Notes: generated from the letters alone by a model not told the origin. A DNA stretch of 64,000 nucleotides from Steroidobacteraceae bacterium (GCA_029266835.1 JAQSWD010000037.1:944-64943), one strand, 5' to 3'. Numbered from the stretch's first letter, positions 13,408-60,052 are shown. Numbers and translations: made by a program.

Positions 13408-13415
13408 GCCCAGGC

Positions 13416-26068: not shown

Positions 26069-26069
<1 letters not shown>
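23886..26069 (-). CDS. Response regulator: REC-PAS-GGDEF(degenerate)-EAL, probably a c-di-GMP phosphodiesterase
   Basis: REC ('VLIVDDD', 'MDVEMP', 'KP'). The GGDEF position reads 'TNDEF'. The EAL domain is intact ('EALVRW', 'DDFGTGYSS', 'AQGFY'). The ATG at 26069 shares one base with the upstream kinase stop; TTG at 26072 is an alternative start. Confidence 0.85.
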
Positions 26070-28888
<2,819 letters not shown>

Positions 28889-29086
28889 GGGCGATACATG
28901 TCCTGGCGCCCGACCGAGAGCGCCCTGAGTAGTCGTATCGGCTTGATTCCGCTCACTCTTGACCCGGCGGACCCGAATTGAGAGGTGCTTCGCAGGGATA
29001 CACATTGGCGCAGTCAGTGATTGACAGGCTGCCGGGGCGGCGACGGGGCGCCAACGAGCTAAGCCATTGTTTTCGCGAGGATTGCC

Positions 29087-29180: not shown

Positions 29181-29257
29181 GGAAAGGTAGCTCAGCTGGT
29201 TAGAGCACGGCACTCATAATGCCGGGGTCGAGGGTTCGATTCCCTCCCTTTCCACCA
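29181..29257 (+). tRNA. tRNA-Met (anticodon CAU), elongator type; apparent integration target
   Basis: Hand-folded. Acceptor GGAAAGG/CCTTTCC, D-arm GCTCAGCTGGTTAGAGC, anticodon stem CGGCA/TGCCG with loop CTCATAA, T-arm GAGGG-TTCGATT-CCCTC, then ACCA. The D-arm resembles E. coli metT. A lysidine-modified tRNA-Ile2 cannot be fully excluded. Confidence 0.9.
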
Positions 29258-29748: not shown

Positions 29749-31551
29749 ATGACGACTCAATCACAAGCGCTCGAAAACCGGATCGGCGCCGAGCAGGTGC
29801 GCTCGGCCTACCGCAATAGTGCTCCCGGCATGGTCGCGACCCTCGCCGGCGCCTGCCTGGTCTCTGCGCTCGTGGCGGGCGCGGGTGCCGTCTCGTGGAC
29901 CGTGGCGATCGTGTTCATGTCGGCGATGATCGTGCAGGTCGTGACGCGGCTCGCGCTGATCTTCACCTACCTGCGGCGCAAACCGCCGGATCTGCAATGG
30001 CGGCGATGGGGCCGGTGGTTCACGGCGGGCGCGCTCGTGGGCGGTCTCACGCTCGGAATCGGCTCCGTGTGGCTCATGCCGCGCGAGCACTTCGAGATGC
30101 AGATGCTCACGCTCCTCTACATCTGCGCGGTCGCGAGCGGCGCCATCACCGCCTTCGGCGTACTGCGCGCCGCGATTTATTCCGTGATCATTCCGCTCGT
30201 CGCGATACCAATCGTGTGGCTCGCACTGCAGGGCGAGCGCACGTCCGTGCTGCTCGCGCTCATCACGCTCGGCTGGTTTCTCGCCGTTTTGGACCAGGCG
30301 CGGCGCTACGGGGCGCAGTTTCGCGAGTCCGTTCGCCTGCGCTTCGAGAATGAGGACCTCATCGCGAACCTCACGCAGGAGAAGATCAAGGCGGAGGAGG
30401 CCAGCGTTGCGAAGTCACGTTTCCTCGCGGCCGCGAGCCACGACCTTCGGCAGCCCGTCCATGCACTGTCGCTGTTCGTCGCCGCGCTGCGGCCGCGCAT
30501 CCCTGAACCTGAAGCCGGCCGCCTGCTCGACCACATCGACAGCTCCGTTCAGGCGATGGGAGGGCTCTTCAACGGCCTGCTCGACATTTCGCGCCTCGAC
30601 GCGGGGGTCGTGGAAGTGAACGCGCGCACATTCGCCCTGCAACCAATGCTCGAACGCATCTGCCGCGACTACGCGTCGACTGCCGAAACCAAGCACATCG
30701 CGTTGCGCTGCCGGCCGACCGCCGCGGCCGTCTTTACCGATCCGCTGCTGCTCGAACGCGTCGTGCGCAACATCGTTGCGAATGCGATCAACTATACCGA
30801 CGGGGGCCGCGTGCTCGTCGGTTGCCGGCGCCGCGGTCGCACGCTGCGCGTCGGCATCTGGGACACGGGTCGCGGCATTCCGGCCGCCGAGCACGAACAG
30901 ATCTTCAAGGAGTTCTACCAGGTCGACAATCCCGAGCGGGATCGCACCAAGGGCGTGGGCCTGGGCCTCGCGATCGTGAAGCGACTGACCGTATTGTTAG
31001 GCCACCCGCTGTCGTTCCGCTCGCAACCCACGCGCGGTTCCGCGTTCTTCGTGGACTTGCCACTGTCGGATGCCGAGATCGTACCGACGGGCGACGCGCT
31101 CGATGCGGCCACGGAGGGCGCGGTTCCGGGATCCGGCCTGGTCCTCGTCGTCGACGACGAAGCGACGATCCAGTCCGCGATGAAGAGCCTGCTCGAAAGC
31201 TGGGGTTACGATGCGATCGTCGCCGGATCCTGCGACGAGATGATCGAGCGTCTCGCGAACTGTCCACACCGCCCGTCTCTCATCGTCTCCGACTATCGAC
31301 TGCGCACCGAAGACGGCATCCGCGTCATCGAACGCCTGCGCTCGGAATACAACGACGACGAAATCCCGGGCATGCTGATCACGGGTGACACTGCGCCTGA
31401 CCGGATCCGCGAAGCGGAGGCGAGCGGGCTACTGCTTTTGCACAAGCCCGTGTCGAATCACCGGTTGCGCGCCGCGATTCTCGAGCTCACGGGCCTTTTC
31501 GCGATGCGATCGGGAAGTCGTGCAGGCACTTTGCCGCCTGGGTGCGGTTGA
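29749..31551 (+). CDS. Hybrid sensor histidine kinase (multi-TM N-terminus-HisKA-HATPase-REC)
   Basis: 600 aa with about 6 N-terminal TM helices. H-box 'ASHDLRQPVHAL', 'GGRVLVG..R......I.DTGRGI', 'GVGLGLAIV', and a C-terminal receiver ('VLVVDDE', 'DYRL', 'LHKP'). Confidence 0.85.
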   Translation: MTTQSQALENRIGAEQVRSAYRNSAPGMVATLAGACLVSALVAGAGAVSWTVAIVFMSAMIVQVVTRLALIFTYLRRKPPDLQWRRWGRWFTAGALVGGLTLGIGSVWLMPREHFEMQMLTLLYICAVASGAITAFGVLRAAIYSVIIPLVAIPIVWLALQGERTSVLLALITLGWFLAVLDQARRYGAQFRESVRLRFENEDLIANLTQEKIKAEEASVAKSRFLAAASHDLRQPVHALSLFVAALRPRIPEPEAGRLLDHIDSSVQAMGGLFNGLLDISRLDAGVVEVNARTFALQPMLERICRDYASTAETKHIALRCRPTAAAVFTDPLLLERVVRNIVANAINYTDGGRVLVGCRRRGRTLRVGIWDTGRGIPAAEHEQIFKEFYQVDNPERDRTKGVGLGLAIVKRLTVLLGHPLSFRSQPTRGSAFFVDLPLSDAEIVPTGDALDAATEGAVPGSGLVLVVDDEATIQSAMKSLLESWGYDAIVAGSCDEMIERLANCPHRPSLIVSDYRLRTEDGIRVIERLRSEYNDDEIPGMLITGDTAPDRIREAEASGLLLLHKPVSNHRLRAAILELTGLFAMRSGSRAGTLPPGCG

Positions 31552-32134
31552 CGACGTTCAGCGTCTTGAAGATCGCAGCGATGTGCACCTTCACCGTTTT
31601 CTCCGCGATGCCGAGGTGCGCGCTGATTTCCTTGTTCGTGAGACCGTCCTTCAGATGGCGCAGCACGTCGATCTGTCGATCCGTGAGCTGGGCGACAGAA
31701 CGGGGACCGTCGGGCGCATGTTGCTCGCTCGCGCGCGCGGCCGCGCCGAGCAGGAGCGGAGGCACATATATGTTCCCGGACAGCACGAGCTTCAACGCGG
31801 ACACGACGGTCTGCGCCGTCGCCGATTTCGGGATGTAACCCGACGCGCCGGCGTTCAATACGCGCCGCACGTCGGAGGCGTTCTCGGAGCTCGACAGCAC
31901 GATGATCGGGAGATCGGGATGGCGACGCGTGAACTCGCGTACCGCCGGCTCGCCACACATTCCCGGCATCATGAGATCCATGAACACCGCGTCGAAGATC
32001 TGCTCGTCGGCGAGATCGAGCGCGTCCTCGATGGAGGTCGCTGGTGTGACGAGGTTGTCAGGCGATGCCTGGCCGAGAAGCGCCGCGAGGCCGTCGCGAA
32101 ACAGCGGATGGTCGTCGATGATGAGGAGCTTCAC
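31487..32134 (-). CDS. NarL/FixJ (LuxR-HTH) family response regulator
   Basis: 215 aa. REC ('KLLIIDDHPLFRDG', 'MDLMMPGM') plus a LuxR HTH ('LTDRQIDVLRHLKDGLTNKEISAHLGIAEKTVKVH'). GTG start. The 3' end overlaps the convergent kinase gene by 65 nt. Confidence 0.9.
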   Translation of the reverse strand: MKLLIIDDHPLFRDGLAALLGQASPDNLVTPATSIEDALDLADEQIFDAVFMDLMMPGMCGEPAVREFTRRHPDLPIIVLSSSENASDVRRVLNAGASGYIPKSATAQTVVSALKLVLSGNIYVPPLLLGAAARASEQHAPDGPRSVAQLTDRQIDVLRHLKDGLTNKEISAHLGIAEKTVKVHIAAIFKTLNVVNRTQAAKCLHDFPIASRKGP

Positions 32135-32188
32135 ACGCTCATCTTAAAGAAACCCTCGCGTTGCAAGCCACAGTTCACATTCCGGTTT

Positions 32189-32210
32189 TTGCATAGTGCG
32201 AGTTGCATAG
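32189..32210. promoter_or_regulatory. Direct repeat TTGCATAG-N6-TTGCATAG in the divergent response regulator/autotransporter intergenic region
   Basis: Two exact 8-mers with 14-bp centre spacing lie in the 288-bp AT-richer spacer between 32134 and 32423. It is a candidate regulator binding site, identified by pattern only. Confidence 0.25.
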
Positions 32211-32422
32211 GCCGAAGGACTTAGGCCTTGGGGCTAGGTCCTCTGGTCGATTGCCGGGAACCCCCTACGCCTATGGAATGTGCGCCCTGGGAGGAATCAC
32301 ATGGACCGTTTGCTCACCGGCTGGGCCGCGAAGGGGCTTTGCACCAGCCTGCGCCCGCAATCCGTATCCGCCGTAGAGCGCATCCCCGATGCCCGCGGCT
32401 TTTCGCTATCTGGAGTCCGCCC

Positions 32423-35400
32423 GTGAACAAGCCGTCATCGAAGAAGCTGCCGTCGTCGCAGCCGACCTTCCTCAAGTCCGCCGTCGCGCTCGCAGTCGCG
32501 GCCGGGCTTTACGGCGCACCGGCCCGGGCGCAGATTCCGTCGCCATTTCCATCACCCCCGGCCATCGGCAGCTCGATCCTGAATCCCGTGACTGGCCTGA
32601 TGGAGGTGGTTCGCAGCCATCCCGACCTGCCGTTCGGCACTGTGCGCACCTGGGAAGGGAGCTACATCTGGTACGGCCCGACGACGGAAGACGAAATCTT
32701 CGTCATCCCGGCGCAAGCCGCCATTCCGGCGACGGCTGACTACCCGGGACAGCCCGCGCTGTCGGAGCGGGTCGTACGCATCGATGACGTCACCCGACTC
32801 GACGACAACGACCCCAGTACGCCAGTCGAAGACCATCTAGTCATCGGCATCTCGATCGTGACGTTGAGCGGGGATCCTTCGCCGACTTCTTCGATCGATG
32901 TCGTGAGCCCGATCGTGCAGTCGCCGCCACCGCCTGGACGTGTGCTCGTCCCGACGCCGGGTCCGGGTGAAGGCGGCGCTGGATATACGATTCCCGCGGT
33001 GCCGGCGGACAGTGTGAACGCGATCTACGATCCGCAGCACGGCCGCTATGGCGACAACGGCTCCGATGGCTGGGGCTTCGAGGTCTGCTTCTTCGGATGC
33101 TGGACCGTCGGCGACGATGCGGATCCCGGCGAGGCGGGCAGCGCCCCCTCCGCCTTCACGCAGACTTATGACGCGGATGACCTCGTCGTCGCGAACGGCG
33201 GACAGATTTTCGCCACCGGCTTCGAGCAGGCGGGCATCGCGGTGCTGCGCCGGGGTGGCGACGGCGGCCAGGGCGGCGACGCGTGGGGTGCGCTCAGCGC
33301 CGGAAACGGCGGCGCGGCGGGCCAGGGCGGCCAGATCGACATCACGTCGAACGTCGACATCACTACGACGGGCGAACGTGGCTTCGGCATCTGGGCCCAG
33401 AGCCGCGCGGGCTACGGCGGCGACGGCGGCAGCGGCTACATCTTCAGCGGATCGGGCAGCGGCGGACCTGCGGCGCTCGCGGGCAATGCGAGTGCAACCA
33501 ACAACGGCGACATCATCACCCGCGGTGAAGGCGCCATAGGACTTTACGTCCAGAGCATCGGCGGCGGCGGCGGCAACGGTGGCGATTCCTACGGCATCGT
33601 GGGTGATGGCGGCTGGGCGAGCGAGGGCGGCGACGGACGCACCGCGACGGCGATCAACAACGGCACGATTCAAACCGGCCGCATCGATTTCAACTCGCAG
33701 GGCGTGCTCGACAACATGGGACAGGCAGCGCACGGCGTGTTCGCGCAAAGCGTCGGCGGCAGCGGCGGCAATGCCGGCGACGGCGGCGGCATCACGGGCC
33801 TCGGTGGGACCGGCGCAACCGGTGGCGATGGAGCGCTCGCGCACGCGATCAACGGGGCCAACGCCGGTATCACCACGATCGGTCACGCATCGCATGGCCT
33901 GTACGCGCAGTCGGTCGGAGGGGGCGGCGGCGACGGCGGTTCGGGCGCGGGTATCGTGGGAGTCGGCGGCGGAGGTGCGGGTGGCGGTGATGGTGGTGAA
34001 GCGCGCGCTGAAAATCGGGCGGGCGCGACCATCCTGACGGCTGGCGACGGCGCGTTCGGCATCCTCGCGCAATCGGTCGGCGGTGGCGGCGGCAACGGCG
34101 GCAACTCGGGCGGCATCGTCGGCATCGGCGGCGGCGGCACGAGCGGAGGCCAGGGCGGAGCCGCGAACGTTGACAATAGCGGTTCGGTGACGACGCTCGG
34201 CGACTACTCGCACGGCGTCGTCGCGCAGTCGATCGGCGGTGGAGGCGGCACCGGCGGCAACGGCGACGGCCTCGTGGGGCTCGGCGGCGGCAGCAACTCG
34301 CTCACGCCAAATCACGGCGGCCTGGTGCGCATCGAGAATTTTCTGGGTAGTTCGATCCGTACCGAAGGCCAGAGCTCGTACGGCGTGCTCGCGCAGAGCA
34401 TCGGCGGCGGCGGTGGGTCGGGCGCGGGGTCGGGCGGCTTGGTGACCGTCGGCGGATCCGGCGGCGCAGGCGGCAACGGCAACGACGTGACGGTGGTCAG
34501 TCGCGCGGCGATCGAGACTCTCGGCGCGGACGGCAAGGGCATCGTCGCGCAGTCCATCGGCGGCGGTGGCGGTTCGGCGAGCGCGTCGACGGGCGCGGTC
34601 GAGCTCGGCGGTGAGGGCGCGGGCGGTGGCAATGGCCGGCTCGTCATTGTCGAGAATCACGGTAGCATCTCGACGATCGGCCGCGGTGCGGACGGGATCT
34701 TCGCGCAGAGCATCGGTGGTGGCGGCGGCAACGGCGCGAGCTCGAGCGGCGTGGTCGCGCTCGGTGGCTCGGGCGCGGGCGGCGGTAACGGCGGCGCCGT
34801 GAACGTCTCTAACTACAGCACGATCTACACGCAGGGCGCGCGTGCCCGCGGCATCATGGCCGAGAGCGTCGGCGGTGGCGGCGGCAGCGGGGGCGAGGGC
34901 GACGGGCTCGTCGCGATCGGCGGCTCCGGCGGCGCGGGCGGCGGCGCCGGTGTCGGCACGCCCAACATCGCGGGCGACCTGACGGTCGTCAACGCGGGCG
35001 AGATCCTCACGGCCGGCGCGGTCTCGGCGGCGATCGAAGCGCGCAGCGTCGGCGGCGGCGGTGGCAGCGGCGGCAGCGCCGGTTCCACCGTGCCCGGCGG
35101 CATCGTGATCGGCGGCACCGGCGGCGACGGTGGGCGCGCCGGCTTCGTCGACGTGACCAACAATCGCGACCTCGAAACATTCGGCGATGATTCGCACGGG
35201 ATCTTCGCGCAGGCCGTGGGCGGCGGGGGCGGCAACGGTGGCAACACCACCTCGATTTCCCTGTTCAGCGGCGCGTCGCTCGGTGCGTCCGGCGGTGACG
35301 GCGGCGATGGCAACCGCGTCTGGATTCGAGGCAACTCGCTCGCGGGCGTGACGCCGACGATCGAAACCCACGGCGACCGCGCAAAGGGAATCTTCGCGCA

Positions 35401-38400
35401 GTCGGTCGGTGGCGGCGGCGGCAACGGCGGCTTCGCGATCCAGGGCACGATCGGCCTGGGTCTTGGCGCCAGCGTCTCGACGGCGGTCGGCGGCGCGGGC
35501 GGCGGCGGCGGCGCGGGTGCGCGCGTCGACGTCCTCGCCAGCCAGGCCCTGCGCACGGCGGGTGAGGACGCCGACGGCATCCTCGCACAGTCGATCGGTG
35601 GCGGCGGCGGCAACGGCGGCTTCGCGATGTCGTACTCCGCGGGCTCGGGTCCCGTCGCATCGGGCGCCGTCGCGGCGTCCATCGGCGGGCGCGGCGGCGC
35701 CGGCGGCAACGGCGGCTTCGTCCGCGTCGACGCGGGCGGTTCGATCCTGACGACGGGCGCCCTGTCCGATGGTCTCATCGCGCAATCGATCGGCGGCGGT
35801 GGCGGCTCCGGCGGCTACTCCATCGCGTTCGCGGCGTCGGGCGCGGGCGCCGCCGCGGGCTCGGTGTCGGTGGCGATCGGCGGCACGGGCGGCGACGGCG
35901 GTGCGGCGGGCGAAGTCGACGTCGACTACGCCGGCGACATCACGACCGCCGACAACGATTCCGTCGGCGTGATCGCGCAGGCGGTCGGCGGTGGCGGCGG
36001 TACCGGCGGTTACACCATTTCCGGTTCGCTCGCGGGCGCGGGCGGCGCCGCGGGCGCGGTCGCGGTCGGCGTGGGCGGTGCGGGTGGCGGCGGAGGCGGC
36101 GGCGGAGTCGTGAGCTCCTCGCTCACCGGCAACCTGACTACCCTCGGCGATCGTTCGACCGGAATGATCGTGCAATCCGTGGGTGGGCGCGGCGGCAGCG
36201 GCGGCTTCAACATATCCGGCGCGATCTCGGGCGCGGGTGGCGGGGCGGCGGCGGTCTCCGTCGGCGTCGGCGGTTCGGGCGGCGGTGGCGGCAATGGCAA
36301 CAGCGCGACGGGCACGTTGCTCGGCAACGCGATGACGCTGGGCGCCGATGCGGATGCCGTGCTCGTGCAGAGCGTCGGCGGTGGCGGCGGCAACGGCGGC
36401 TTCAATGTGAGCGGCTCGATCGGTGGCGCGGGCGGTGGCGCCGCGGGCCTGGCGGTCGGCGTGGGTGGCGCGGGTGGCGGCGCTGGCGACGGCCTCGCGG
36501 CGACGGGATCCGTCACCGGCAATCTATCTACCGCGGGCGACGGCTCGAATGCGTTCGTGACGCAGAGCATCGGCGGCGGCGGCGGCAACGGTGGCTTCAA
36601 CGCTGGCGGCGGAATCTCGGGCGGGGGCGGCGGCGCGGGCGCCGTGTCGGTGGGCGTCGGTGGCGCGGGGGGCGGTGGTGGCGCGGGCGGCATCGTATCC
36701 GCGACGCTCGTGGGTTCCGCGCAAACGCGCGGCGACAACGCGACCGCGATCGTCGCGCAGAGCATCGGCGGTGGCGGCGGCAACGGCGGCTTCAACGCGA
36801 CCGGCTCGATTGCCGGCGCGGGTGGCGGCGCGGGCGCCGTGTCGGTCGGCGTCGGCGGATCGGGCGGCGCCGGTGGCGGCGCGCTCCAAACTACTTTGAC
36901 GGTCACCGGCGACGACGGTTCCGGCGGCATTCTCGCGCAAAGCGTCGGCGGCGGTGGCGGCAATGGCGGGTTCAATGCAACCGCAGCGATCTCGGCGGCC
37001 GGCGCGGGCGCGGGCTCCGTCGCGGTCGGTGTCGGCGGCGCGGGCGGCACGGGCGCGCACGTCGGCGGCGTCGTGACGGCAACGGTCACCGGCAATATCG
37101 TCACGCGCGGCGTGAATGCGACGGGCATGACGGCGCAGAGCATCGGCGGCGGTGGCGGCAACGGCGGCTTCAATGCGTCGGCGGCGATCTCGGGCGCGGG
37201 CACCGGCGCCGGTGCCGTTGCGGTCGGCGTCGGCGGTTCCGCCGGCGGCGCCGGCAGCGGCGGCGACGTCGTCGGCACGCTGACCGGCGACCTCGAAACC
37301 ACCGGAGACGGTTCCGACGGCATCGTCGTGCAGAGCATCGGCGGCGGCGGCGGCAATGGCGGCTTCACGGCCGACGGCGCGATTTCCGCGGCTGGCGCCG
37401 GCGCGGGCTCCGTGTCGGTGGGCGTCGGCGGTTCCGGCGCGGGCGCCGGCAACGGCGGCATCGTGACGGCGAACGTGACCGGCAACGTGGTCACCACGGG
37501 CGAGAACGCGAGCAGCATCGTCGCGCAGTCGATCGGCGGCGGCGGCGGCAACGGCGGCTTCGCCGCGGGCGGCGGCATCTCGGGTGCGGGCACCGGCGCG
37601 GGCTCCGTGGCCGTGGGCGTCGGCGGCTCCGGCGGCGCCGGCGGCACGGGCAACGAAGTGCGCGCGGTCGTCAGCGGCAATGCGACCACGCTCGGCGAAA
37701 ACTCGACGGCCGTGGTCGTGCAGAGTCTCGGCGGCGGCGGCGGCACCGGCGGCATGAGCGTCGTCGGCACGCTCTCGGGCGGCGGCACCGGCGCGGGCTC
37801 AGTGTCGGTGGGCCTGGGCGGTGCGGGCGGTGGCGGCGGATTCGCGGGACTAACTACCCTCGATCTCACCGGCGACGTCGGGACGGCGGGCGACGGCGCG
37901 GGCGGCGTGCTCGTGCAGAGCGTCGGCGGCGGTGGCGGCTCGGGCGCGATGAGCGTCGTGGGCGCGCTCGCGGGCGGCGGCCAGGGCGCGGGCGCGGTGG
38001 CCGTGGGCGTTGGCGGTTCGGGCGGGCTCGGCGGCGATGGCGCCGTGGTCGAAGCGGCCGTGACCGGCAACGTGAGCACGCGGGGCGATCGCGCGACCGC
38101 GTTCATCGCGCAGAGTCTGGGCGGCGGCGGTGGCAACGGCGGGATGAACGTGACCGGCGCGATGGCAGCCGCGGGACGCGGCGCGGGCTCGGTGGCGGTT
38201 GGCGTCGGCGGCGTCGGCGGCGGTGGCGGCGACGGATTCGGCGTCACTGCGAGGCACACGGGCATCCTCATCACTCTCGGCGCGGATTCGCATGGCGCGC
38301 TGTTCCAGAGCATCGGCGGCGGCGGCGGCAATGGCGGCATGAACGTCACCGCGGGTCTCACGGCGGCCGGTGACGGCGCGGGCACGCTCGCGGTCGGTGT

Positions 38401-41400
38401 GGGTGGTGCGGGCGGCGACGGCGGCGACGCGGGGTTCGTGACCGGCACGGTGACCGGCAATGCGTCCACGCTCGGCGACGGCAGCTTCGGCGTGCTCATG
38501 CAGAGCGTGGGCGGAGGGGGCGGCAACGGCGCCATGAACATCACGGGTGCGGTCTCGTTGAGCAAAGGTCCCAACGGCTCGATGGGTGTCGGCGTCGGCG
38601 GATTCGGCGGCGCGGGCGGCGATGCGGGCGCGGTCGAGGGAACGGTCGACGGCGAGGTCGCCACGCACGGCCGCGGCGCGATTGGCGTGCTCGCGCAGTC
38701 GGTCGGCGGCGGCGGCGGCAACGGCGGCATGAACATCACCGGTGCGATGTCGATCGCGAAGGAAACGAATGCCGCGGCGGCGCTCGGCGTTGGCGGTTTC
38801 GGCGGCGGCGGTGGCGACTCGGCTCTCGTGACGCTGACGCGCATCGGCACGACGCAGACGATCGGTGCGAATTCGGACGGCGTCGTCGCGCAATCGATCG
38901 GCGGTGGCGGCGGCAATGGTGGCATCAACATCTCGTCGAGCCTCTCGGGTTCGACCCAGGGCTCGGCGTTTTCACTGGCGGGCGGAGTCGGCGGCTTCGG
39001 CGGCGACGGCGGCGAGGGCCGCAACGTGACAGCCACCGTGACGGGCGACGTGCTTGCGACGGGCTTCGGCGCGCTCGCCTACGAACACGAAGACGGCGTC
39101 CATCGCCGGCGTATCGCCGACGGCTCGAATGGCGTGCTCGCGCAGAGCATCGGCGGGTCGGGCGGCAACGGCGGCATGAACATCTCGGGCGGTATCGCGC
39201 TCGACGGCTCGAACGGCAGCTCGCATTCGTTGTCGCTCGGCGTCGGCGGATTTGCAGGCGGCGGCGGCGACGCGGGCGAGGTGCGCCTCACGGTCGACGC
39301 GTCGCGAGTGTTCGCGGTCGGCGATCACCGGTTCGGCATCGGTGCGCAATCGGTCGGTGGCGGCGGCGGCAGCGGCGGAATGAACATCGCGGGCGGCATC
39401 GCGATGGATGGCGTTCTGTCGGCCGGTGTCGGTGGGTTCGGCGGTGACGGGGGCGTCGCGCGCGCCGTGACCGCGACAGCGAACACGGGCATCGATGTCA
39501 TCGGCGCGCACAGCATCGGCTTCATGGCGCAATCCATCGGCGGCGGCGGCGGTACCGGCGGCGTGAACATCAGCGGCGCGATCCAGGCCAACAGCCAGAG
39601 CGACCGGCCCACGGTCACGTTCGGCCTCGGCGGCGCAGGCGGCGCGGGCAATGTGAGCGGCACGGTGAACGCCACCCAGCACGGCGACATTCTCGTGATG
39701 GGCAACCAGTCGATCGGCGTGCTCGCGCAGAGCGTGGCGGGCGGCGGCGGCGCGGGGGCGATGAACATCACCGGCAATATCGCGCGGGGTACCGGGTACA
39801 ACGCGACCGTCGCGATCGGCGGCCAGGGCGGCGCCGGCGCGGACGCGGCGCGAGTCGAGCTGCGCAGCGACGGCGACGTCACGGTCGACGGCCGCGAGGT
39901 CAATTTCTCGGGCGTCATCGCGCCCAACGGCGACACGATCGTCGCCGGGATCGGCGGCAGCGGCGGTGGCGGTGGTCATGCGGGTGCGGTGTTCGTCGAG
40001 CGCGGCGCACGAGAGGCGGGCATCATCGAAACCTTCGGCGCACGCGCGAACGGTCTCACCGCGCAGTCGATCGGTGGCGGCGGTGGCAACGGCGGCATCA
40101 ACTTCACGCAGAGTCTCGCGGACGATGACGGCGACACGCTGAATTTTGGCGTCGGCGGCGATGGCGCCGCCCCGGGTCACGGCCAGCAGGTCGACGTGCG
40201 CCACACTGGCGACATCCTCACCCATGGCAATCGCAGCGCGGGTCTGCTCGCGCAATCCGTGGGCGGCGGCGGCGGCAACGCGGACCTCAACATCGCGACC
40301 GCGCACGGCGGCGACACCGGCGTCAACATCGGCATCGGCGGCAACACGGGTCCCGGCGGCGACGGCGGCGATGTCGACGTGCGCCATACCGGCGACATCT
40401 CGACGAGCGGTCACTTCTCACATGCGCTCATGGCGCAGAGCGTCGGCGGCGGCGGCGGCAGTGCCGGCACCGACTTCGTGTCCGGCGACGCGTCGGATCT
40501 CGCGTTCCAGCTCGGCCGCCGTGGCGGCACGGGTGGCGACGGCGGCGACGTCCACGTCGAGTCCGCGGGCACGCTAACTACCGTGGGCGACCGATCCGTC
40601 GGCATCCGGGCGCAGAGCGTGGGTCTCGGCGGCGGCGAGAGCAGCTCGACGTCGGGCGAGATCTCGGGCGGCGACGAGGACGACGATTCCGATTGGGCGG
40701 TGTCGCTCGAACTCGGCATCTCGGGCTCGACCGGCGGCGTCGCAGGCGACGTCGATGTGCGTGCCGGCGGCTCGATCTCGACACAGGGCCTCGAGTCGCA
40801 CGGCATCCACGCGCAATCGCAGGGCGGCGGCGGCGGTGACGGCGGCGCGATCGAGCGACAGCCCGCCGCGACGGCCTCGCACCAGGTCCAGGTCGCGATT
40901 GGCGGCGGCGGCGGTTCGGGTGGCATCGCAGGCGCGGTGCTCGTGGACAGCGATGCGGACATCGAGACGGACGGCGACAGGTCGCACGGCATCTTCGCGC
41001 AGAGCGTCGGCGGTGGCGGCGGCAATGGCGGCTACACGGCGGCCGTGGATCTCGAGGATGGCGATGACGACAGCGGTGGCAACACGATCGCGGTGAGTCT
41101 CGGCGGCGACGGCGGTACGGGTTCGATCGCGAGTACCGTGGACGTCACCAACCGCGGCGACATCCTCACGCGCGGCCGTGAATCACACGGCATCAATGCG
41201 GAGTCAACGGGCGGTGGCGGCGGCGCGGGCGGCGCGGTGCTCAGCATCGGCAACAGCAGCGGCGCTACGACGCGTGCGCTCACCGTGAACATCGGCGGCA
41301 GCGGCGGAGAGGGCGGCGTGTCCGACGACGTCACTGTCATCAACGAAGGGGTGATCGCGACGCTCGGCGACAACGCGTCCGGCATCCGCGCCAAAAGCAT

Positions 41401-44400
41401 CGGGGGCAAAGGTGGCGATGCCGGCCTCATGCTCAGCCTCGGCGTGCAGAACGTCGGTCCGAACCAGAGCGCGACCCGCCTCACGGTCAACGTGGGCGGC
41501 GATGGCGGCACGGGTGGCGTCGCGGGGGACGTCGCGGTCGTCAACCGCGCGCGGACGGGAGTCGCCGACAGCGGCGTCATCGCGACCGCGGGTCGCGAGT
41601 CGCACGGCATATTCGCGCAGTCGCTCGGCGGCGGCGGTGGCAACGGCAGCTCGATCATCACCTCGAACCTCGGCGCGTCGAATGGCGGTCAGCTCACGCT
41701 CATCGATCTCGCGTTCGGCGGACGCGGCGGCAACGGCTCGCAGTCGGGCACCGTCACCGTCACCAACGATTCGCTGATCGACACGTCCGGCGAAAAAGCG
41801 CACGGCATCTTCGCGCAGTCGATCGGCGGGGGCGGCGGCAACGGCGGTCTCGTGCTCGCAGCGAACGCGGTGCTCGCCTCGGGCGACGTGCCGAACGAGG
41901 CGATGGTCACCATCGGCGGCGAAGGCGGCACCGGCGATGACGCCGGCGACGTCACGATCAACAACAGCGGCCGCATCGTCACGCGCGGCGATCGCGCGCA
42001 CGGAATCTTCGCGCAATCAATCGGCGGCGGCGGCGGCAACGCGGGCCTCGGCTTCGGTCTGTCGACCAACCCGGGCAGCATGGTCATCGCCGGCGCGTTG
42101 TCCGCGGCGTTCGGCGGACGCGGCGGCGAGGGCGGTCTCGGCGGCCACGTCACCGTAACTCACACGGGCGACATCACGGTGCTCGGCCGTGGCTCGCAGG
42201 CGGTGGTTGCGGAAAGCATCAATGGCGGTGGCGGTCACGTGACGTTCGATCTGAACGGCGTCGCGACGCTGCCCGGCGTGCCCGACAATGTCTACAACGT
42301 GATTCCGCTGCCATCCGGCATCGACGCGGCGGATCCGCGGCTCGTATTTTCCGGCGGCGGCGCGTCGCAGCAGAACTCGAACGCCGGCAACGTCACGCTC
42401 AACTACACCGGAACCTTCGGCGTCGCAGGCGACAACGGCGCAGCGAACGCCGTGCAGGCGATCGGTGGCGGCGGCGGCACGTTCGATCTGTCGATTGACC
42501 TGCTCGACGTCGAGGGCGCGGTCGACGACGTGGATGTCGACGGCCGCCTGGGTGGCATCGATGGCCGGAACAATCGCGGCGGCGATGTGAGCTCGGCTCA
42601 CGACGGCGATCTCGTGACCGAAGGTGACAACACTCAGGGCGCGCTCGTCCAGTCCATCGGCGGCGGCGGCGGCCGCGCAAACCTGGATCTGACGTCGAAC
42701 CACGATTCGATTGGCGCGGCCGCGATTTCGCTCGGTGGCCGGAATGGCACGAACGAAGAGGGCGGCAACATCCAGCACACGCAGAACGGTTCCGTCGCGA
42801 CGTTGGGAGAGAGCGCGCACGGCGGCGTCTTCCAGAGCATCGGCGGCGGCGGAGGTAGTTTGAGCCTCATGGCGGGCGGTGCGGATTCTCCGGCGCCGGA
42901 TGCGGCGTCCGTTTCCAAGCTGGAAGACGGCACCGGCCACGGCAACCCGACGCGTCAGGCGCTGAACATGATCGTGCCGCAGCTCACCTTCGGCGCGGAC
43001 GGCGGCACGCGGCTCGAGGGCGGTGATGTTGGCGTCATGCTCGACGGCGACGTACATACGCAGGGCAACAACGCGGTCGGCATGATCTTTCAGAGCGTCG
43101 GCGCCGGCGGCGGCATCGCGAGCGTGCTCGGCGTCGATGGGCTCGGCGTCGCCCTCGGCGGCAGCAACGGCGCCACCGGCGACGGCGGGTCGCTCGGTGT
43201 GACGAACACGGGTGATGTGTCGACGCAGGGACGGCGCGCGCATGGCGTGTTCCTGCAATCGATCGGCGGCGGCGGAAGCGCAGTGTTCACCGACTCGCCC
43301 GAAGCGACGGTGACACTCGCGGCCGGCAACACCGGTAGCGGCGGCGCGATTTCATTCGCACAGAACGGCACGATCGCCACGAGCGGCGAGCGCGCATACG
43401 GAGTGTTTGCACAGAGCGTCGGCGGCGGAGGCGGCTATGTCGATGATGTCTTCGCGGGCAGCGCCGGTGGCGCCGGCTCCGCGGGCAACATCGACCTCAC
43501 GCTCAACGGCGACATCGTCGCGCTCGGCGACTTCTCGACGGCGGTGTTCGCGCAGAGCAGCGGCTCCGGCGGGCTCGGCGGCAACATTACGGCGACGCTC
43601 GCGGCGGGCAACGGCCTCCTCGGCGGCGCGAACGGCAACGCGGTGCATTTCGATGGCGGCGCGCTGAATCGCTTCACGAACCGCGGCAATGTGGCGACGC
43701 TCTCCGGCATCGAGGGCTTCGCATTCCGCGGCGGCGCGGGCGGCGACATCATCGACAACTTCGGCGTTACGGTGGGCAACGTCGATCTCGGCGCAGGCGC
43801 GAACGCATTCGTCAACAACGCCGGCGCGACTTTCTACACGGGCACGACGTTGAACCTGGGCAGCCCTGCGAACGTGTTCCGGAACGACGGCACCATCGCG
43901 CCCGGCGATGCGGCGCTCGCCGTGGAGACGCGCCTTGGGGGCAGCTATCTACAGACCCCGACGGGTGTCGCGAACATGGAGATCGATTTCGCCCGCCGGG
44001 AAGGCGATCGCATCACCGCGACGGGCACGGCCGAAGTTTCGGGGACGGTGAACTTCTCGCTGCTCAACACGCAGTTCATCCGTCCGGGCTTGCAGTTCCA
44101 GCCGCTGTTCACTGCGAGCGACGGCGCGCGTGACCGCGGCGTGGCGTTCAATCCGCAGCGCTCGATCGTCATCGACTACCGGCTGATCAACCAGAACCCG
44201 AACGCGCTCGGCGTGCAGTACGACGTGGACTTCAACGCGGATGGCCTCACGGGCAACCGTCGCGAAGTCGGTGACTACCTGAATCGCGTGCAGTCCGCAG
44301 GCGGTCCGGGTGCGCTGGGCGACACGATCTCGACTGCCGTCCTGCACACCGACCTCGACGCGTACGCGTCCATGCTCACGCAGCTCGGCACGGAGTTCTA

Positions 44401-45337
44401 CGCGGAGCAGCAGGCACTCGCGCTCTCGGGCGCACAGCGCTTTTCGCGCAACCTGCAGAACTGCGGCACGTTCTCTCTGGCGGAGACCGCCGGGGACTCG
44501 ACGGGCTGTTGGTGGGGACGCTACGACGACAACCCGTCCTCGCGCGAAGCCGCTGCGGGCTTCCCCTCCGCCCGGCACGACAGCTACAGCATCTCGCAGG
44601 GCATGCAGAAGCCGCGCGACGACGGCTGGGTTATGGGCGTCGGCGTGGACCTGGAGCAGCACCGCTCACAGGGCTTCGACGGGATGTGGACCTCCGAAAG
44701 CAGCTTCGTGCAATTCGGCAGCAGCCTGCGTCGCGATTTCGGTTCGCATGGCGTGGGCGCGACGGTCGCGCTTGGTCACAACGCGCAGGAGGTCACTCGT
44801 CAGCTCGGGGTCACGCAGGTCGCGGAGGCGCAGGGTAATCGCAGCGTGTTCTTCATGAGCAGCATGCTCGACTACACGCGCATCCTCGAGGTGGCGGGCG
44901 TGCGCATCGAACCGGGCATCAACATCGGCTCGTCGCTGCTGCGCTACGGAAAGATGACGGAGCGGGGCGCGGATTCGCAGAACGCCGTGATCCATCACGG
45001 GTCGGAGATCCATCTGTGGGCGGAGCCCGCGGTCGGTGCGCGGTACGACGTGAAGTTCGTGAGCGGTGCATCGCTGCGGCTGTTCGCGCGCGCGGGAGTG
45101 TTGCACTACCTGTCGGGCACGAGCTCGAAGTTGCGGGCGGGACTCGAGGGCGCGCCGGCCGGCGCAACGCCGATGCGCATCGGGTCGAACCTGGATCGTA
45201 CGCATTTCGTCGGCGAAGCGGGATTGCAGTACCGGGCGACGGGCGGGTTCACGCTATCGATGTCGTTCGCGGAACAGCAATCCGAGATTCGCGAGGGTGG
45301 GGCCAGCAGCGTGAGGTTCGTATTGCCATTGCAGTGA
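32423..45337 (+). CDS. Giant type Va autotransporter (about 4304 aa) with a glycine-rich repeat passenger and a C-terminal beta-barrel
   Basis: GTG at 32423 follows GGAG and gives the signal peptide 'VNKPSSKKLPSSQPTFLKSAVALAVAAGLYGAPARAQ'. About 54 'G(I/V)xAQS(I/V)GGGGGNGG' modules follow. The last roughly 300 aa have alternating-hydrophobic beta strands and linker features of an autotransporter barrel. The single frame stays open for 13 kb. Confidence 0.85.
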   Translation: MNKPSSKKLPSSQPTFLKSAVALAVAAGLYGAPARAQIPSPFPSPPAIGSSILNPVTGLMEVVRSHPDLPFGTVRTWEGSYIWYGPTTEDEIFVIPAQAAIPATADYPGQPALSERVVRIDDVTRLDDNDPSTPVEDHLVIGISIVTLSGDPSPTSSIDVVSPIVQSPPPPGRVLVPTPGPGEGGAGYTIPAVPADSVNAIYDPQHGRYGDNGSDGWGFEVCFFGCWTVGDDADPGEAGSAPSAFTQTYDADDLVVANGGQIFATGFEQAGIAVLRRGGDGGQGGDAWGALSAGNGGAAGQGGQIDITSNVDITTTGERGFGIWAQSRAGYGGDGGSGYIFSGSGSGGPAALAGNASATNNGDIITRGEGAIGLYVQSIGGGGGNGGDSYGIVGDGGWASEGGDGRTATAINNGTIQTGRIDFNSQGVLDNMGQAAHGVFAQSVGGSGGNAGDGGGITGLGGTGATGGDGALAHAINGANAGITTIGHASHGLYAQSVGGGGGDGGSGAGIVGVGGGGAGGGDGGEARAENRAGATILTAGDGAFGILAQSVGGGGGNGGNSGGIVGIGGGGTSGGQGGAANVDNSGSVTTLGDYSHGVVAQSIGGGGGTGGNGDGLVGLGGGSNSLTPNHGGLVRIENFLGSSIRTEGQSSYGVLAQSIGGGGGSGAGSGGLVTVGGSGGAGGNGNDVTVVSRAAIETLGADGKGIVAQSIGGGGGSASASTGAVELGGEGAGGGNGRLVIVENHGSISTIGRGADGIFAQSIGGGGGNGASSSGVVALGGSGAGGGNGGAVNVSNYSTIYTQGARARGIMAESVGGGGGSGGEGDGLVAIGGSGGAGGGAGVGTPNIAGDLTVVNAGEILTAGAVSAAIEARSVGGGGGSGGSAGSTVPGGIVIGGTGGDGGRAGFVDVTNNRDLETFGDDSHGIFAQAVGGGGGNGGNTTSISLFSGASLGASGGDGGDGNRVWIRGNSLAGVTPTIETHGDRAKGIFAQSVGGGGGNGGFAIQGTIGLGLGASVSTAVGGAGGGGGAGARVDVLASQALRTAGEDADGILAQSIGGGGGNGGFAMSYSAGSGPVASGAVAASIGGRGGAGGNGGFVRVDAGGSILTTGALSDGLIAQSIGGGGGSGGYSIAFAASGAGAAAGSVSVAIGGTGGDGGAAGEVDVDYAGDITTADNDSVGVIAQAVGGGGGTGGYTISGSLAGAGGAAGAVAVGVGGAGGGGGGGGVVSSSLTGNLTTLGDRSTGMIVQSVGGRGGSGGFNISGAISGAGGGAAAVSVGVGGSGGGGGNGNSATGTLLGNAMTLGADADAVLVQSVGGGGGNGGFNVSGSIGGAGGGAAGLAVGVGGAGGGAGDGLAATGSVTGNLSTAGDGSNAFVTQSIGGGGGNGGFNAGGGISGGGGGAGAVSVGVGGAGGGGGAGGIVSATLVGSAQTRGDNATAIVAQSIGGGGGNGGFNATGSIAGAGGGAGAVSVGVGGSGGAGGGALQTTLTVTGDDGSGGILAQSVGGGGGNGGFNATAAISAAGAGAGSVAVGVGGAGGTGAHVGGVVTATVTGNIVTRGVNATGMTAQSIGGGGGNGGFNASAAISGAGTGAGAVAVGVGGSAGGAGSGGDVVGTLTGDLETTGDGSDGIVVQSIGGGGGNGGFTADGAISAAGAGAGSVSVGVGGSGAGAGNGGIVTANVTGNVVTTGENASSIVAQSIGGGGGNGGFAAGGGISGAGTGAGSVAVGVGGSGGAGGTGNEVRAVVSGNATTLGENSTAVVVQSLGGGGGTGGMSVVGTLSGGGTGAGSVSVGLGGAGGGGGFAGLTTLDLTGDVGTAGDGAGGVLVQSVGGGGGSGAMSVVGALAGGGQGAGAVAVGVGGSGGLGGDGAVVEAAVTGNVSTRGDRATAFIAQSLGGGGGNGGMNVTGAMAAAGRGAGSVAVGVGGVGGGGGDGFGVTARHTGILITLGADSHGALFQSIGGGGGNGGMNVTAGLTAAGDGAGTLAVGVGGAGGDGGDAGFVTGTVTGNASTLGDGSFGVLMQSVGGGGGNGAMNITGAVSLSKGPNGSMGVGVGGFGGAGGDAGAVEGTVDGEVATHGRGAIGVLAQSVGGGGGNGGMNITGAMSIAKETNAAAALGVGGFGGGGGDSALVTLTRIGTTQTIGANSDGVVAQSIGGGGGNGGINISSSLSGSTQGSAFSLAGGVGGFGGDGGEGRNVTATVTGDVLATGFGALAYEHEDGVHRRRIADGSNGVLAQSIGGSGGNGGMNISGGIALDGSNGSSHSLSLGVGGFAGGGGDAGEVRLTVDASRVFAVGDHRFGIGAQSVGGGGGSGGMNIAGGIAMDGVLSAGVGGFGGDGGVARAVTATANTGIDVIGAHSIGFMAQSIGGGGGTGGVNISGAIQANSQSDRPTVTFGLGGAGGAGNVSGTVNATQHGDILVMGNQSIGVLAQSVAGGGGAGAMNITGNIARGTGYNATVAIGGQGGAGADAARVELRSDGDVTVDGREVNFSGVIAPNGDTIVAGIGGSGGGGGHAGAVFVERGAREAGIIETFGARANGLTAQSIGGGGGNGGINFTQSLADDDGDTLNFGVGGDGAAPGHGQQVDVRHTGDILTHGNRSAGLLAQSVGGGGGNADLNIATAHGGDTGVNIGIGGNTGPGGDGGDVDVRHTGDISTSGHFSHALMAQSVGGGGGSAGTDFVSGDASDLAFQLGRRGGTGGDGGDVHVESAGTLTTVGDRSVGIRAQSVGLGGGESSSTSGEISGGDEDDDSDWAVSLELGISGSTGGVAGDVDVRAGGSISTQGLESHGIHAQSQGGGGGDGGAIERQPAATASHQVQVAIGGGGGSGGIAGAVLVDSDADIETDGDRSHGIFAQSVGGGGGNGGYTAAVDLEDGDDDSGGNTIAVSLGGDGGTGSIASTVDVTNRGDILTRGRESHGINAESTGGGGGAGGAVLSIGNSSGATTRALTVNIGGSGGEGGVSDDVTVINEGVIATLGDNASGIRAKSIGGKGGDAGLMLSLGVQNVGPNQSATRLTVNVGGDGGTGGVAGDVAVVNRARTGVADSGVIATAGRESHGIFAQSLGGGGGNGSSIITSNLGASNGGQLTLIDLAFGGRGGNGSQSGTVTVTNDSLIDTSGEKAHGIFAQSIGGGGGNGGLVLAANAVLASGDVPNEAMVTIGGEGGTGDDAGDVTINNSGRIVTRGDRAHGIFAQSIGGGGGNAGLGFGLSTNPGSMVIAGALSAAFGGRGGEGGLGGHVTVTHTGDITVLGRGSQAVVAESINGGGGHVTFDLNGVATLPGVPDNVYNVIPLPSGIDAADPRLVFSGGGASQQNSNAGNVTLNYTGTFGVAGDNGAANAVQAIGGGGGTFDLSIDLLDVEGAVDDVDVDGRLGGIDGRNNRGGDVSSAHDGDLVTEGDNTQGALVQSIGGGGGRANLDLTSNHDSIGAAAISLGGRNGTNEEGGNIQHTQNGSVATLGESAHGGVFQSIGGGGGSLSLMAGGADSPAPDAASVSKLEDGTGHGNPTRQALNMIVPQLTFGADGGTRLEGGDVGVMLDGDVHTQGNNAVGMIFQSVGAGGGIASVLGVDGLGVALGGSNGATGDGGSLGVTNTGDVSTQGRRAHGVFLQSIGGGGSAVFTDSPEATVTLAAGNTGSGGAISFAQNGTIATSGERAYGVFAQSVGGGGGYVDDVFAGSAGGAGSAGNIDLTLNGDIVALGDFSTAVFAQSSGSGGLGGNITATLAAGNGLLGGANGNAVHFDGGALNRFTNRGNVATLSGIEGFAFRGGAGGDIIDNFGVTVGNVDLGAGANAFVNNAGATFYTGTTLNLGSPANVFRNDGTIAPGDAALAVETRLGGSYLQTPTGVANMEIDFARREGDRITATGTAEVSGTVNFSLLNTQFIRPGLQFQPLFTASDGARDRGVAFNPQRSIVIDYRLINQNPNALGVQYDVDFNADGLTGNRREVGDYLNRVQSAGGPGALGDTISTAVLHTDLDAYASMLTQLGTEFYAEQQALALSGAQRFSRNLQNCGTFSLAETAGDSTGCWWGRYDDNPSSREAAAGFPSARHDSYSISQGMQKPRDDGWVMGVGVDLEQHRSQGFDGMWTSESSFVQFGSSLRRDFGSHGVGATVALGHNAQEVTRQLGVTQVAEAQGNRSVFFMSSMLDYTRILEVAGVRIEPGINIGSSLLRYGKMTERGADSQNAVIHHGSEIHLWAEPAVGARYDVKFVSGASLRLFARAGVLHYLSGTSSKLRAGLEGAPAGATPMRIGSNLDRTHFVGEAGLQYRATGGFTLSMSFAEQQSEIREGGASSVRFVLPLQ
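33390..43580 (+). repeat. Intragenic array of about 54 Gly-rich modules (55-70 aa each) within the autotransporter
   Basis: The DNA core GCGCAGAGCATCGGCGGCGGCGGCGGCAACGGCGGC recurs with variation. The most regular part is about 35.9-38.7 kb, with a period of roughly 66-70 aa ('..VTGN..T.G......AQSIGGGGGNGGFN..G.ISGAG.GAG.V.VGVGG.G..'). Confidence 0.85.
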
Positions 45338-60038: not shown

Positions 60039-60052
60039 TCATGGAGGTCACG

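Follow-up and report, generated by a model that had tools for sequence, protein, structure and literature searches.

What does a single gene of about 13 kb, built largely of glycine-rich repeats, encode, and is it a real gene at all? The question is raised by a stretch of 64,000 nucleotides (nt) of a Steroidobacteraceae bacterium (GCA_029266835.1 JAQSWD010000037.1:944-64943; hereafter, the window), whose plus strand holds such a gene at positions 32423 to 45337. The giant gene is genuine, intact and conserved, and is not an artefact. Its product very probably has the architecture of a classical (type Va) autotransporter, with all the parts present in order: a signal peptide, a passenger of ~3,900 amino acids (aa), a helical linker and a barrel of ~12 strands. 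With good confidence, we read it as a giant type Va autotransporter whose passenger would form a solenoid surface fibre, most likely non-enzymatic. The gene and its parts are as follows.

32412..32415, plus strand: Shine-Dalgarno-like GGAG, 7 nt 5' of the GTG start, read from the sequence
32423..45337, plus strand: autotransporter coding sequence, 4,304 aa plus stop, supported by the list of open reading frames (ORFs), the translation, the GC content at third codon positions (GC3), the same start on three contigs and the ratio of nonsynonymous to synonymous substitution rates (dN/dS)
32423..32530, plus strand: Sec-type signal peptide, residues 1-36, with a Lys-rich n-region, a SAVALAVAAGLY core and an ARA/Q cleavage motif, recognised by eye
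32531..33325, plus strand: non-repetitive, lineage-specific head, residues 37-301, ~265 aa, with Pro-rich stretches
33326..43573, plus strand: module array, residues 302-3717, 54 glycine-rich modules by a core hidden Markov model (HMM)
33479..35515, plus strand: mostly class A modules, residues 353-1031, of 52-56 aa, some up to 65 aa
35516..39070, plus strand: class B array, residues 1032-2216, 18 modules, with a Tandem Repeats Finder period of 195 (repeat families D1 and D4)
39071..43573, plus strand: class C modules, less regular, residues 2217-3717, of 59-68 aa with insertions up to 112 aa
43574..44254, plus strand: non-Gly-rich C-terminal beta-strand segment of the passenger, residues 3718-3944, in an autochaperone-like position, from an AlphaFold model
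44255..44455, plus strand: helical linker, residues 3945-4011, four helices, with a highly conserved 'TQLGTEFYAEQQA' (invariant columns in alignment A1)
44462..44509, plus strand: second Cys pair, C4014 and C4029, in the loop between linker and barrel; invariant as C315/C330 in alignment A1, with low predicted local distance difference test (pLDDT) values
44504..45331, plus strand: outer-membrane beta-barrel translocator, residues 4028-4303, with PF03797 over residues 4030-4281 (44510-45265)

The ORF spans 32228..45337 on the plus strand as a single uninterrupted frame. Judged from the sequence, the GTG at 32423 is the likely start codon, and gene callers chose the equivalent start on three independent metagenome contigs that carry the locus. 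The codon-position bias (GC3 = 0.856; G at codon position 1 = 0.554) marks it as a real coding gene in a GC-rich genome. An earlier note, made from this DNA alone, had described one frame of about 13 kb with a signal peptide, head, modules and barrel. The ORF list and translation agree with it from the GTG to the stop at 45337, and no frameshift interrupts the 13 kb in the assembled sequence. The protein contains 27.6% Gly, 0.4% Lys and 4 Cys in total. Scans for promoters and terminators at both gene ends gave nothing exceeding shuffle expectation.

Two long ORFs run antisense inside the gene, at 32837-36175 (minus strand, 1,112 aa) and 36010-39036 (minus strand, 1,008 aa); neither is more than a shadow cast by the GGC/GCC-rich frame. 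Proteins read from such genes in the wrong frame ('RRRR/AAAA') have also been deposited, for example P0021 and the start of the ORF at locus L009. Upstream, a 41-aa ORF at 32301-32426 (plus strand, MDRLLTGWAAKGLCTSLRPQSVSAVERIPDARGFSLSGVRP) ends in a TGA that overlaps the autotransporter's GTG (GTGA), and gene callers reported it on each of the three independent metagenome contigs. Unless spurious, it may encode a leader peptide whose translation is coupled to that of the main gene.

Scans of the whole protein against Pfam and NCBIfam returned nothing because of its composition bias; the C-terminal piece alone matches PF03797. Over the last 605 aa, this Pfam match has E=1.4e-15 and 58.2 bits (cut-off 26) and covers model positions 1-253 of 255. 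An AlphaFold model of the same 605 aa, built on an alignment with nine homologues, reaches a pLDDT of 90 and a predicted template-modelling score (pTM) of 0.83, and displays ~12 long antiparallel strands at model residues 329-604. Compared by Foldseek with known structures, it matches EstA (E=5.5e-23), AaaA, NalP (E=2.2e-21, target-normalised template-modelling (TM) score 0.83), EspP, AIDA-I, BrkA and Hbp, with E values from 1e-23 to 1e-13 overall. The best structure matches are all monomeric type Va translocators, and a passenger and a C-terminal barrel of ~275 aa lie in one ORF. Such a passenger and full-size barrel in one polypeptide point to type Va, as opposed to Vb, Vc and Ve. The type Va barrel that the earlier note had proposed is thus upheld by the domain match and the structure comparison alike.

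In the predicted model, the helical linker lies directly N-terminal to the barrel, which begins at model residue 329. Its helices, assigned by DSSP in model numbering, are H246-259, H267-275, H279-289 and H292-312, the last one 21 residues long. In the beta-strand segment before them, short strands recur periodically over model residues 7-236, and pLDDT is mostly >90.

At the other end, the signal peptide reads MNKPSSKK...GAPARA/QI, with n-, h- and c-regions recognisable by eye. The aligned N-termini of relatives have the same layout, in keeping with what had been claimed for it. The head that follows was described as ~270 aa, non-repetitive and with one Cys pair; this is what we find. The pair is a CxxxC motif, C222/C226, encoded at 33086-33100 within 'GFEVCFFGCW'. 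No match to the head was found in Pfam, NCBIfam or PDB sequences, and a word-indexed search brought up only P0143 (39% identity) as a homologue. An alignment of this head with those of L006, L008, L010, L016 and P0143 reveals an I-x-(N/D)-P-x-(T/N)-G motif close to where the mature protein begins and the CxxxC pair in four of these six heads. Common to them too is an 'RGGDGGxGG' transition ('RGGDGGQGG' in the window), leading from the head into the first, degenerate modules. Among the 150 best family members described below, an INPxTG-like motif occurs in only 18.

The bulk of the passenger is the module array. An HMM built from module cores finds 54 domains at a threshold of i-E<=0.01, the first at residues 302-337 and the last at 3687-3717, so that a hand count of about 54 proves exact. 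The strict motif [QE][SA]xGGGGG is present 52 times, where 1000 shuffles lead one to expect 0.41. The overall consensus, '..G.I.T.G..a.GI.AQS(I/V)GGGGGnGG', reproduces the (A/V)QS(I/V)GGGGG core with Gly-rich turns that had been noticed earlier. The modules are rich in Thr, Asn, Ser and Gly and poor in charged residues except Asp.

Three classes of module can be told apart: A proximal, B central and C distal. The class A consensus is gg...v.n.g.i.T.G..ahGv.AQSvGGGGG.gg.sgG.VglGG.Ga.GG. and that of class B is Gg.Vt..vtGn..T.Gd.s.gvlaQSiGGGGGnGGfn..GaisgaG.gAGaVaVGVGG.GGgGGd. A regular central array had been noted with a period of 66-70 aa; the array is indeed there (~35516-39070), with a measured period of exactly 65 aa (195 nt), found in 15 of the 18 class B modules. 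These modules share a mean amino-acid identity of 51% (range 34-72%).

We modelled six class B modules (residues 1548-1937), aligned with 53 homologous segments, by AlphaFold. The model is confident (pLDDT 93.2, pTM 0.90), consists only of beta-strands and loops, and repeats the same five strands every 65 residues. The first half of a module runs strand-3-strand-6-strand and then enters a Gly arc; the second half has identical turn lengths (3 and 6). We infer from this that a module would form two solenoid coils of ~32-33 residues, each made up of three short strands and a single polyglycine arc. The passenger as a whole is rather likely, going by the model, to be a long beta-solenoid rod. A solenoid had also been suggested beforehand, and the periodic all-beta model fits it.

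No curated sequence family accounts for the module. The head and four module blocks, searched as five passenger pieces, had no match at E<=1 in Pfam or NCBIfam, and PDB sequence searches with the head, a module profile and a C-terminal profile gave nothing meaningful. The passenger-associated-transport-repeat (PATR) models PF12951 and TIGR02601 had no match at E<=1 either in these five pieces or in the whole protein. We therefore reject a PATR reading, in agreement with the initial impression that this repeat is a different one. A chlamydial Pmp reading was likewise rejected, since PF02415, the Pmp repeat, has no match at E<=1 in the passenger pieces.

The modules are old neighbours rather than recent copies. 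Tandem Repeats Finder reports 67-79% matches in the repeat region, copies of a repeat family are 60-81% identical in DNA to the reference copy, and the longest exact internal repeat is 34 nt. Together with the class B mean of 51%, these values refute the 'near-identical DNA repeats' of the earlier note. The closest relative, L001, a metagenome-assembled genome (MAG) of Pseudomonadota, aligns collinearly with the window along the 11.7 kb visible, at ~85% DNA identity and with 14 gap openings. Of 51 window modules, 50 are most similar to the L001 module in the same position; identities are 74-98% to that ortholog and 13-72% to paralogs. A codon alignment of 3,895 codons contains only three in-frame indels, of 5, 38 and 2 aa. 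The dN/dS against L001 is 0.18 for the whole alignment; classes B and C give 0.15 and 0.13, the barrel 0.32. The modules are thus individually conserved, more strongly than the barrel, with no sign of concerted evolution; the array is shown to be old and positionally fixed, with each module under purifying selection.

The one-to-one orthology of modules and the low dN/dS speak against both frequent change in length by recombination and an assembly with collapsed or chimeric repeats. The L001 assembly is independent and collinear across the repeats. The scope for recombinational length variation once seen here finds no support, given the diverged modules, the orthology, the scarcity of indels and the purifying selection. 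Module number does vary among distant members, with 36 in L006, 39 in L016, 42 in L010 and up to 101 in P0149, which indicates that over long evolutionary spans the array has grown and shrunk.

Three metagenome contigs, 99.2-99.6% identical to the window over the 5' end of the gene, stop inside it ~1.0-1.16 kb from its start: L020 and L021 at window position 33580, and L019 at 33423. The breakpoints of L020 and L021 fall exactly within the first GGCGGCGGCGGCGGC run, the first GGC run. This is a systematic short-read assembly break that fragments the family in public data; as a result, most database homologues are unannotated fragments and some MAG copies look frameshifted. At the MAG loci L003, L009 and L014, the ORF starts mid-module after a stop or frame change, and the sequence upstream gives Arg/Trp runs read from the wrong frame. 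Such loci may be genuine pseudogenes, or else assembly or polishing has introduced frameshifts into the GC-rich repeats.

The window protein belongs to a large family that is already sequenced, unstudied and uncurated: that of giant glycine-rich autotransporters. It combines the features by which this AQS(I/V)GGGGG-module family is recognised, namely tandem profile matches, a Gly content of ~25-30% and a PF03797 C-terminus. A scan of one genome per species yielded 18 homologous loci in Steroidobacteraceae and other gammaproteobacterial MAGs, an Alcaligenaceae MAG, Altererythrobacter sp. MF3-039, a Stakelama MAG and Rubritalea tangerina (Verrucomicrobiota; the locus is from strain KCTC 12907). 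Their ORFs measure from 2,000 to at least 3,964 aa, and many extend beyond the 10-kb flank. Profile A3, a six-module alignment seeded by the window protein, was searched against 1.84 billion representative proteins (50%-identity clusters) and matched 3,146 clusters at E<=1e-3; the stricter cut-off of E<=1e-30 retains 1,451. The best 150 of the 3,146 are 1,478-7,216 aa long (median 3,110) and carry 10-101 modules; 31 exceed 4,000 aa and 22 exceed 4,304 aa.

Two RefSeq members, WP_160736742.1 (5,023 aa, Altericroceibacterium endophyticum) and WP_092349423.1 (4,248 aa, Desulfuromusa kysingii), are each annotated as 'autotransporter outer membrane beta-barrel domain-containing protein'. The longest, P0149 (7,216 aa, 101 modules), is a 'hypothetical protein, partial' labelled Synechococcus sp. 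UW140, a putative attribution. A PF03797 C-terminus is firm in 5 of 8 distant giant members tested, and one more ends at the start of the domain. In P0172 (3,729 aa), the same module is followed by a TSP3-containing repeat region with no autotransporter barrel, so the module is not strictly confined to autotransporters. From their sequences, the family members appear to be mostly autotransporters. The module family spans at least five phyla: Pseudomonadota, Verrucomicrobiota and Thermodesulfobacteriota, and, less certainly, Planctomycetota and Cyanobacteriota.

Functionally characterised passengers range from 280 to 3,333 aa (PMC9289746), and the autotransporter BigE, published in 2012, has 10,429 aa (Celik et al., PMC3419190). 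The length of the window protein had been called extreme. The 22 longer proteins among the best 150 (up to 7,216 aa), the 5,023-aa RefSeq protein and BigE tell otherwise: it is larger than any studied passenger, yet not extreme. Literature on the motif, on giant or glycine-rich autotransporters and on the carrier genera contained no description of the module family.

Next to the gene lies a signalling-rich neighbourhood.

23886-26072, minus strand: REC-PAS-GGDEF-EAL protein (cyclic di-GMP turnover), in an apparent operon with the CHASE8 kinase
26069-29005, minus strand: CHASE8-HAMP hybrid histidine kinase with Hpt, in the same apparent operon, 3-8 kb upstream of the autotransporter
29181-29257: tRNA-Met, between the cyclic di-GMP/CHASE8 operon and the kinase/regulator pair
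29749..31551, plus strand: hybrid histidine kinase (HisKA, HATPase_c and REC in Pfam), convergent with the response regulator, with a 65-nt overlap
31487..32134, minus strand: NarL/FixJ-type response regulator, REC plus LuxR/GerE helix-turn-helix (PF00072, PF00196), divergent from the autotransporter
45707-48703 and 48707-51523, plus strand: two tandem paralogous regulators, each an OmpR-type winged helix followed by an AAA/STAND NTPase

An intergenic region of 289 nt separates the response regulator from the autotransporter gene. In L006, a response regulator (126-782, minus strand) sits in the same position with 80% identity, more conserved than the autotransporter itself, and the C-terminus of the kinase is kept upstream. 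The hybrid kinase is also present on contig L019, and the response-regulator arrangement is the same on three metagenome contigs. The response regulator is possibly the regulator of the autotransporter gene, and the hybrid kinase a candidate partner. A plus-strand ORF at 31385-32224, apparently conserved in L006, was dismissed as an antisense shadow of the minus-strand response regulator. The OmpR-C/STAND regulators, a TonB receptor and a major facilitator superfamily gene were rejected as parts of the system, not being conserved beside homologues. The remaining window is ordinary chromosome (gatB, hsp33, ychF, tRNA-Gln, tRNA-Met and a MoxR-type cluster). The MoxR-type cluster at 9432-14939 includes DUF4350, DUF58 and an RDD/SpoIIM-like membrane protein, and an outer-membrane porin of the alginate-export family lies beside an amidohydrolase at 59929-62079; neither has an evident link to the gene.

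Type V secretion is the simplest known secretion system, and Sec export, insertion assisted by the beta-barrel assembly machinery (BAM) and C-to-N threading are established for it. By this route, the protein would be exported by Sec and its barrel inserted by BAM; the passenger would then be threaded out unfolded, C-terminus first, its folding outside the cell driving secretion. It would fold module by module into a long beta-solenoid, a rod of ~50-60 nm (54 x 2 x 0.48 nm) provided that each module does form two coils. This rod would stay anchored by the barrel and carry the head at its far end. That Cys and Lys are so scarce, and the Cys pairs so closely spaced, fits the constraints of type V translocation. 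Such a surface fibre could serve as an adhesin or spacer for attachment, aggregation or biofilm, possibly under the adjacent NarL-type regulator and hybrid kinase. This view of function draws on analogy with long non-enzymatic passengers, and weakly on the signalling genes nearby; by that analogy, an adhesin role would fall just short of an even chance.

Several observations weigh against this picture. The solenoid geometry, the handedness and the number of coils per module were inferred from the DSSP string alone. Foldseek found no significant match of the six-module model either in the PDB, where the Vag8 passenger comes first (E=0.13, TM 0.13), or in BFVD (lowest E=2.4e-3, TM<=0.2), which leaves the term 'beta-helix' unconfirmed by fold comparison. 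The weak hits are mostly right-handed beta-helices, the Vag8 passenger included, with some Gly-rich collagen-like and polyproline type II (PPII) proteins. The Pfam autochaperone and pertactin models had no match at E<=1. The head, having no recognisable domain, may be an enzymatic or toxic tip. Synteny of the regulator could be checked in one other genome only (L006), and downstream neighbours are not conserved beside homologues. In the literature, expression, surface exposure or binding is reported for no family member.

Finally, the chain ends in ...SVRFVLPLQ (45311-45334), with its Phe 6 residues from the end and no terminal aromatic residue. Close relatives end in ...RFAWPLR, ...RFVWPLK and ...RFALPLK, a subfamily pattern ...RF..PL[QKRN], while 127 of the best 150 family members have a terminal Phe, Trp or Tyr. 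According to Celik et al. 2012 (PMC3419190), the final strand is 'often, but not always' the beta-motif, and the non-aromatic C-terminus is a subfamily variation.

Other explanations part from a cell-bound, non-enzymatic fibre at different points. Many autotransporter passengers are released, and this one might be cleaved and act away from the cell, or assemble by itself into an S-layer-like or matrix coat or an ice- or mineral-binding, surface-active protein, its surface activity lying in flat solenoid faces rich in Gly, Thr, Asn and Ser. The composition of the modules, with few charged residues besides Asp, would suit this, as would the MAG of the closest relative (L001), labelled GFS, and the occurrence of the family in free-living soil, freshwater and marine bacteria, not in pathogens. 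We consider it unlikely: no cleavage motif or protease domain was identified, Pfam and NCBIfam gave no ice-binding or S-layer family match, and an ice-binding protein appears only as a non-significant Foldseek match (rank 27, E=1.3). In classical autotransporters, a beta-helix stalk often bears a functional domain at the N-terminus. Here too, the rod could be a mere stalk for an enzyme, toxin or ligand-binding activity in the ~265-aa head, whose motifs INPxTG and GWG(F/I)E(V/I)C..GCWT(V/I)G are conserved in closer relatives. That seems distinctly improbable for a Pro-rich head with no match in Pfam, NCBIfam or PDB sequences, and so poorly conserved that a word search finds one homologue and an INPxTG-like motif recurs in 18 of 150 members; it is the modules, not the head, that are most constrained (dN/dS 0.13-0.15).

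The repeats themselves invite three further readings. A length- or phase-variable surface antigen, with module number changed by recombination, would explain why distant members differ in module number (36, 39, 42, up to 101). It is hard to reconcile with copies only 60-81% identical in DNA that share no exact repeat above 34 nt, with 50 of 51 modules nearest their positional L001 ortholog and 3 indels in 3,895 codons, or with 5' ends 99.2-99.6% identical on three metagenome contigs, and we hold it to be very improbable. Hardly more credit, and if anything a shade less, goes to an RTX-like calcium-binding beta-roll or a polyglycine/PPII bundle of the kind found in PE_PGRS proteins and springtail antifreeze proteins, in place of a beta-helical passenger. 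By eye, GGxGGDGG and GGGGGNGG resemble the RTX turn GGxGxD, and the PPII-bundle antifreeze protein 7jjv stands at Foldseek ranks 2-3 with 23% identity. PF00353 has no match at E<=1, however; the periods are of 52-66 aa with no nonapeptide periodicity, and the protein has a Sec signal and an autotransporter barrel instead of a type I secretion signal. The 7jjv matches are non-significant (E=0.16-0.21, TM 0.06-0.19), and DSSP assigns regular beta-strands to the six-module model. We rejected both the RTX and the PPII-bundle readings for want of PF00353 and a 9-residue period and because of those strands. Scarcely credible, at last, is an assembly artefact or decaying pseudogene, be it through collapsed or chimeric repeats or a GC-driven ORF. 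It would draw on the break of the short-read contigs L020 and L021 at 33580, on the frameshifted MAG homologues L003, L009 and L014, and on the ease with which GC-rich sequence yields long spurious ORFs, such as the antisense ones of 1,112 and 1,008 aa. An uninterrupted 13-kb frame with a GC3 of 0.856 and a dN/dS of 0.18, collinear with L001 over 11.7 kb at 85%, complete in its functional parts and their order, and with repeats too diverged to collapse, contradicts it.

The giant autotransporter raises a question at the level of the family, more interesting than the single gene: whether a possibly new, widely used solenoid module exists. Proposing that the AQS(I/V)GGGGG module is a structurally new class of beta-solenoid, with two large coils, no solved counterpart and rods of 50-100 nm, is speculative, and we regard it as doubtful; the Foldseek null is no proof of a new fold, as the method performs poorly on low-complexity solenoids. 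If true, at least five phyla would build 50-100 nm rods from single chains of 4,000-7,000 aa. Research on type V secretion would gain a natural system in which to ask how very long passengers stay unfolded and are drawn out, and domain databases a large uncurated repeat family. Common as the module is, with >3,000 clusters at 50% identity and many proteins of 3,000-7,000 aa, neither Pfam nor NCBIfam detects it, and a repeat model made from the family would correctly annotate thousands of 'hypothetical' fragments. Cultured carriers, namely Altericroceibacterium endophyticum, Altererythrobacter sp. MF3-039, Rubritalea tangerina and Desulfuromusa kysingii, make function and structure directly testable. 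The conservation of 50 successive modules, one to one, shows that a long repeat protein need not be plastic in evolution but can be rigid.

Among known systems, the window protein resembles autotransporters of the pertactin, BrkA, Vag8, Hbp and EspP type in its signal peptide, elongated all-beta passenger, helical linker and 12-stranded barrel. Its barrel model matches NalP, EspP, BrkA and Hbp, and Vag8 is the top, non-significant fold match for the modules. It differs from the pertactin, BrkA, Vag8, Hbp and EspP type in having no similarity to their passengers in sequence, a passenger 4-10 times longer, a TM of only ~0.13 to Vag8, and modules of 52-66 aa with two polyglycine arcs.

Like BigE, it is a giant type Va protein that arose through the replication of segments within its passenger (PMC3419190). 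By its description, BigE contains an eight-fold replicated, BrkA-like segment of ~300 aa and is found in Betaproteobacteria, whereas the window protein has 54 short Gly-rich modules. In chlamydial Pmp proteins, short Gly-containing motifs mark successive predicted beta-helix coils (PMC11166332). These, with their GGA(I/L/V) and FxxN motifs, are likewise autotransporters with Gly motifs, and class B of the window protein also has a 'GGFN' after its Gly run; motif, spacing and taxonomic range are different. The RTX beta-roll (GGxGxDxUx) similarly alternates Gly-rich turns with short beta-strands in a repetitive secreted protein, but its type I secretion, 9-residue period and Ca2+-binding Asp were not found in the window protein.

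The closest likeness is within the family itself. RefSeq and metagenome members share with the window protein the AQS(I/V)GGGGG core, ~25-30% Gly, the same plan and, in most, a PF03797 C-terminus; they differ from it in module number (10-101) and in their heads. The window protein's own subfamily, mostly from Steroidobacteraceae-like MAGs, is set apart by its ...RF..PL[QKRN] C-terminus and CxxxC head.

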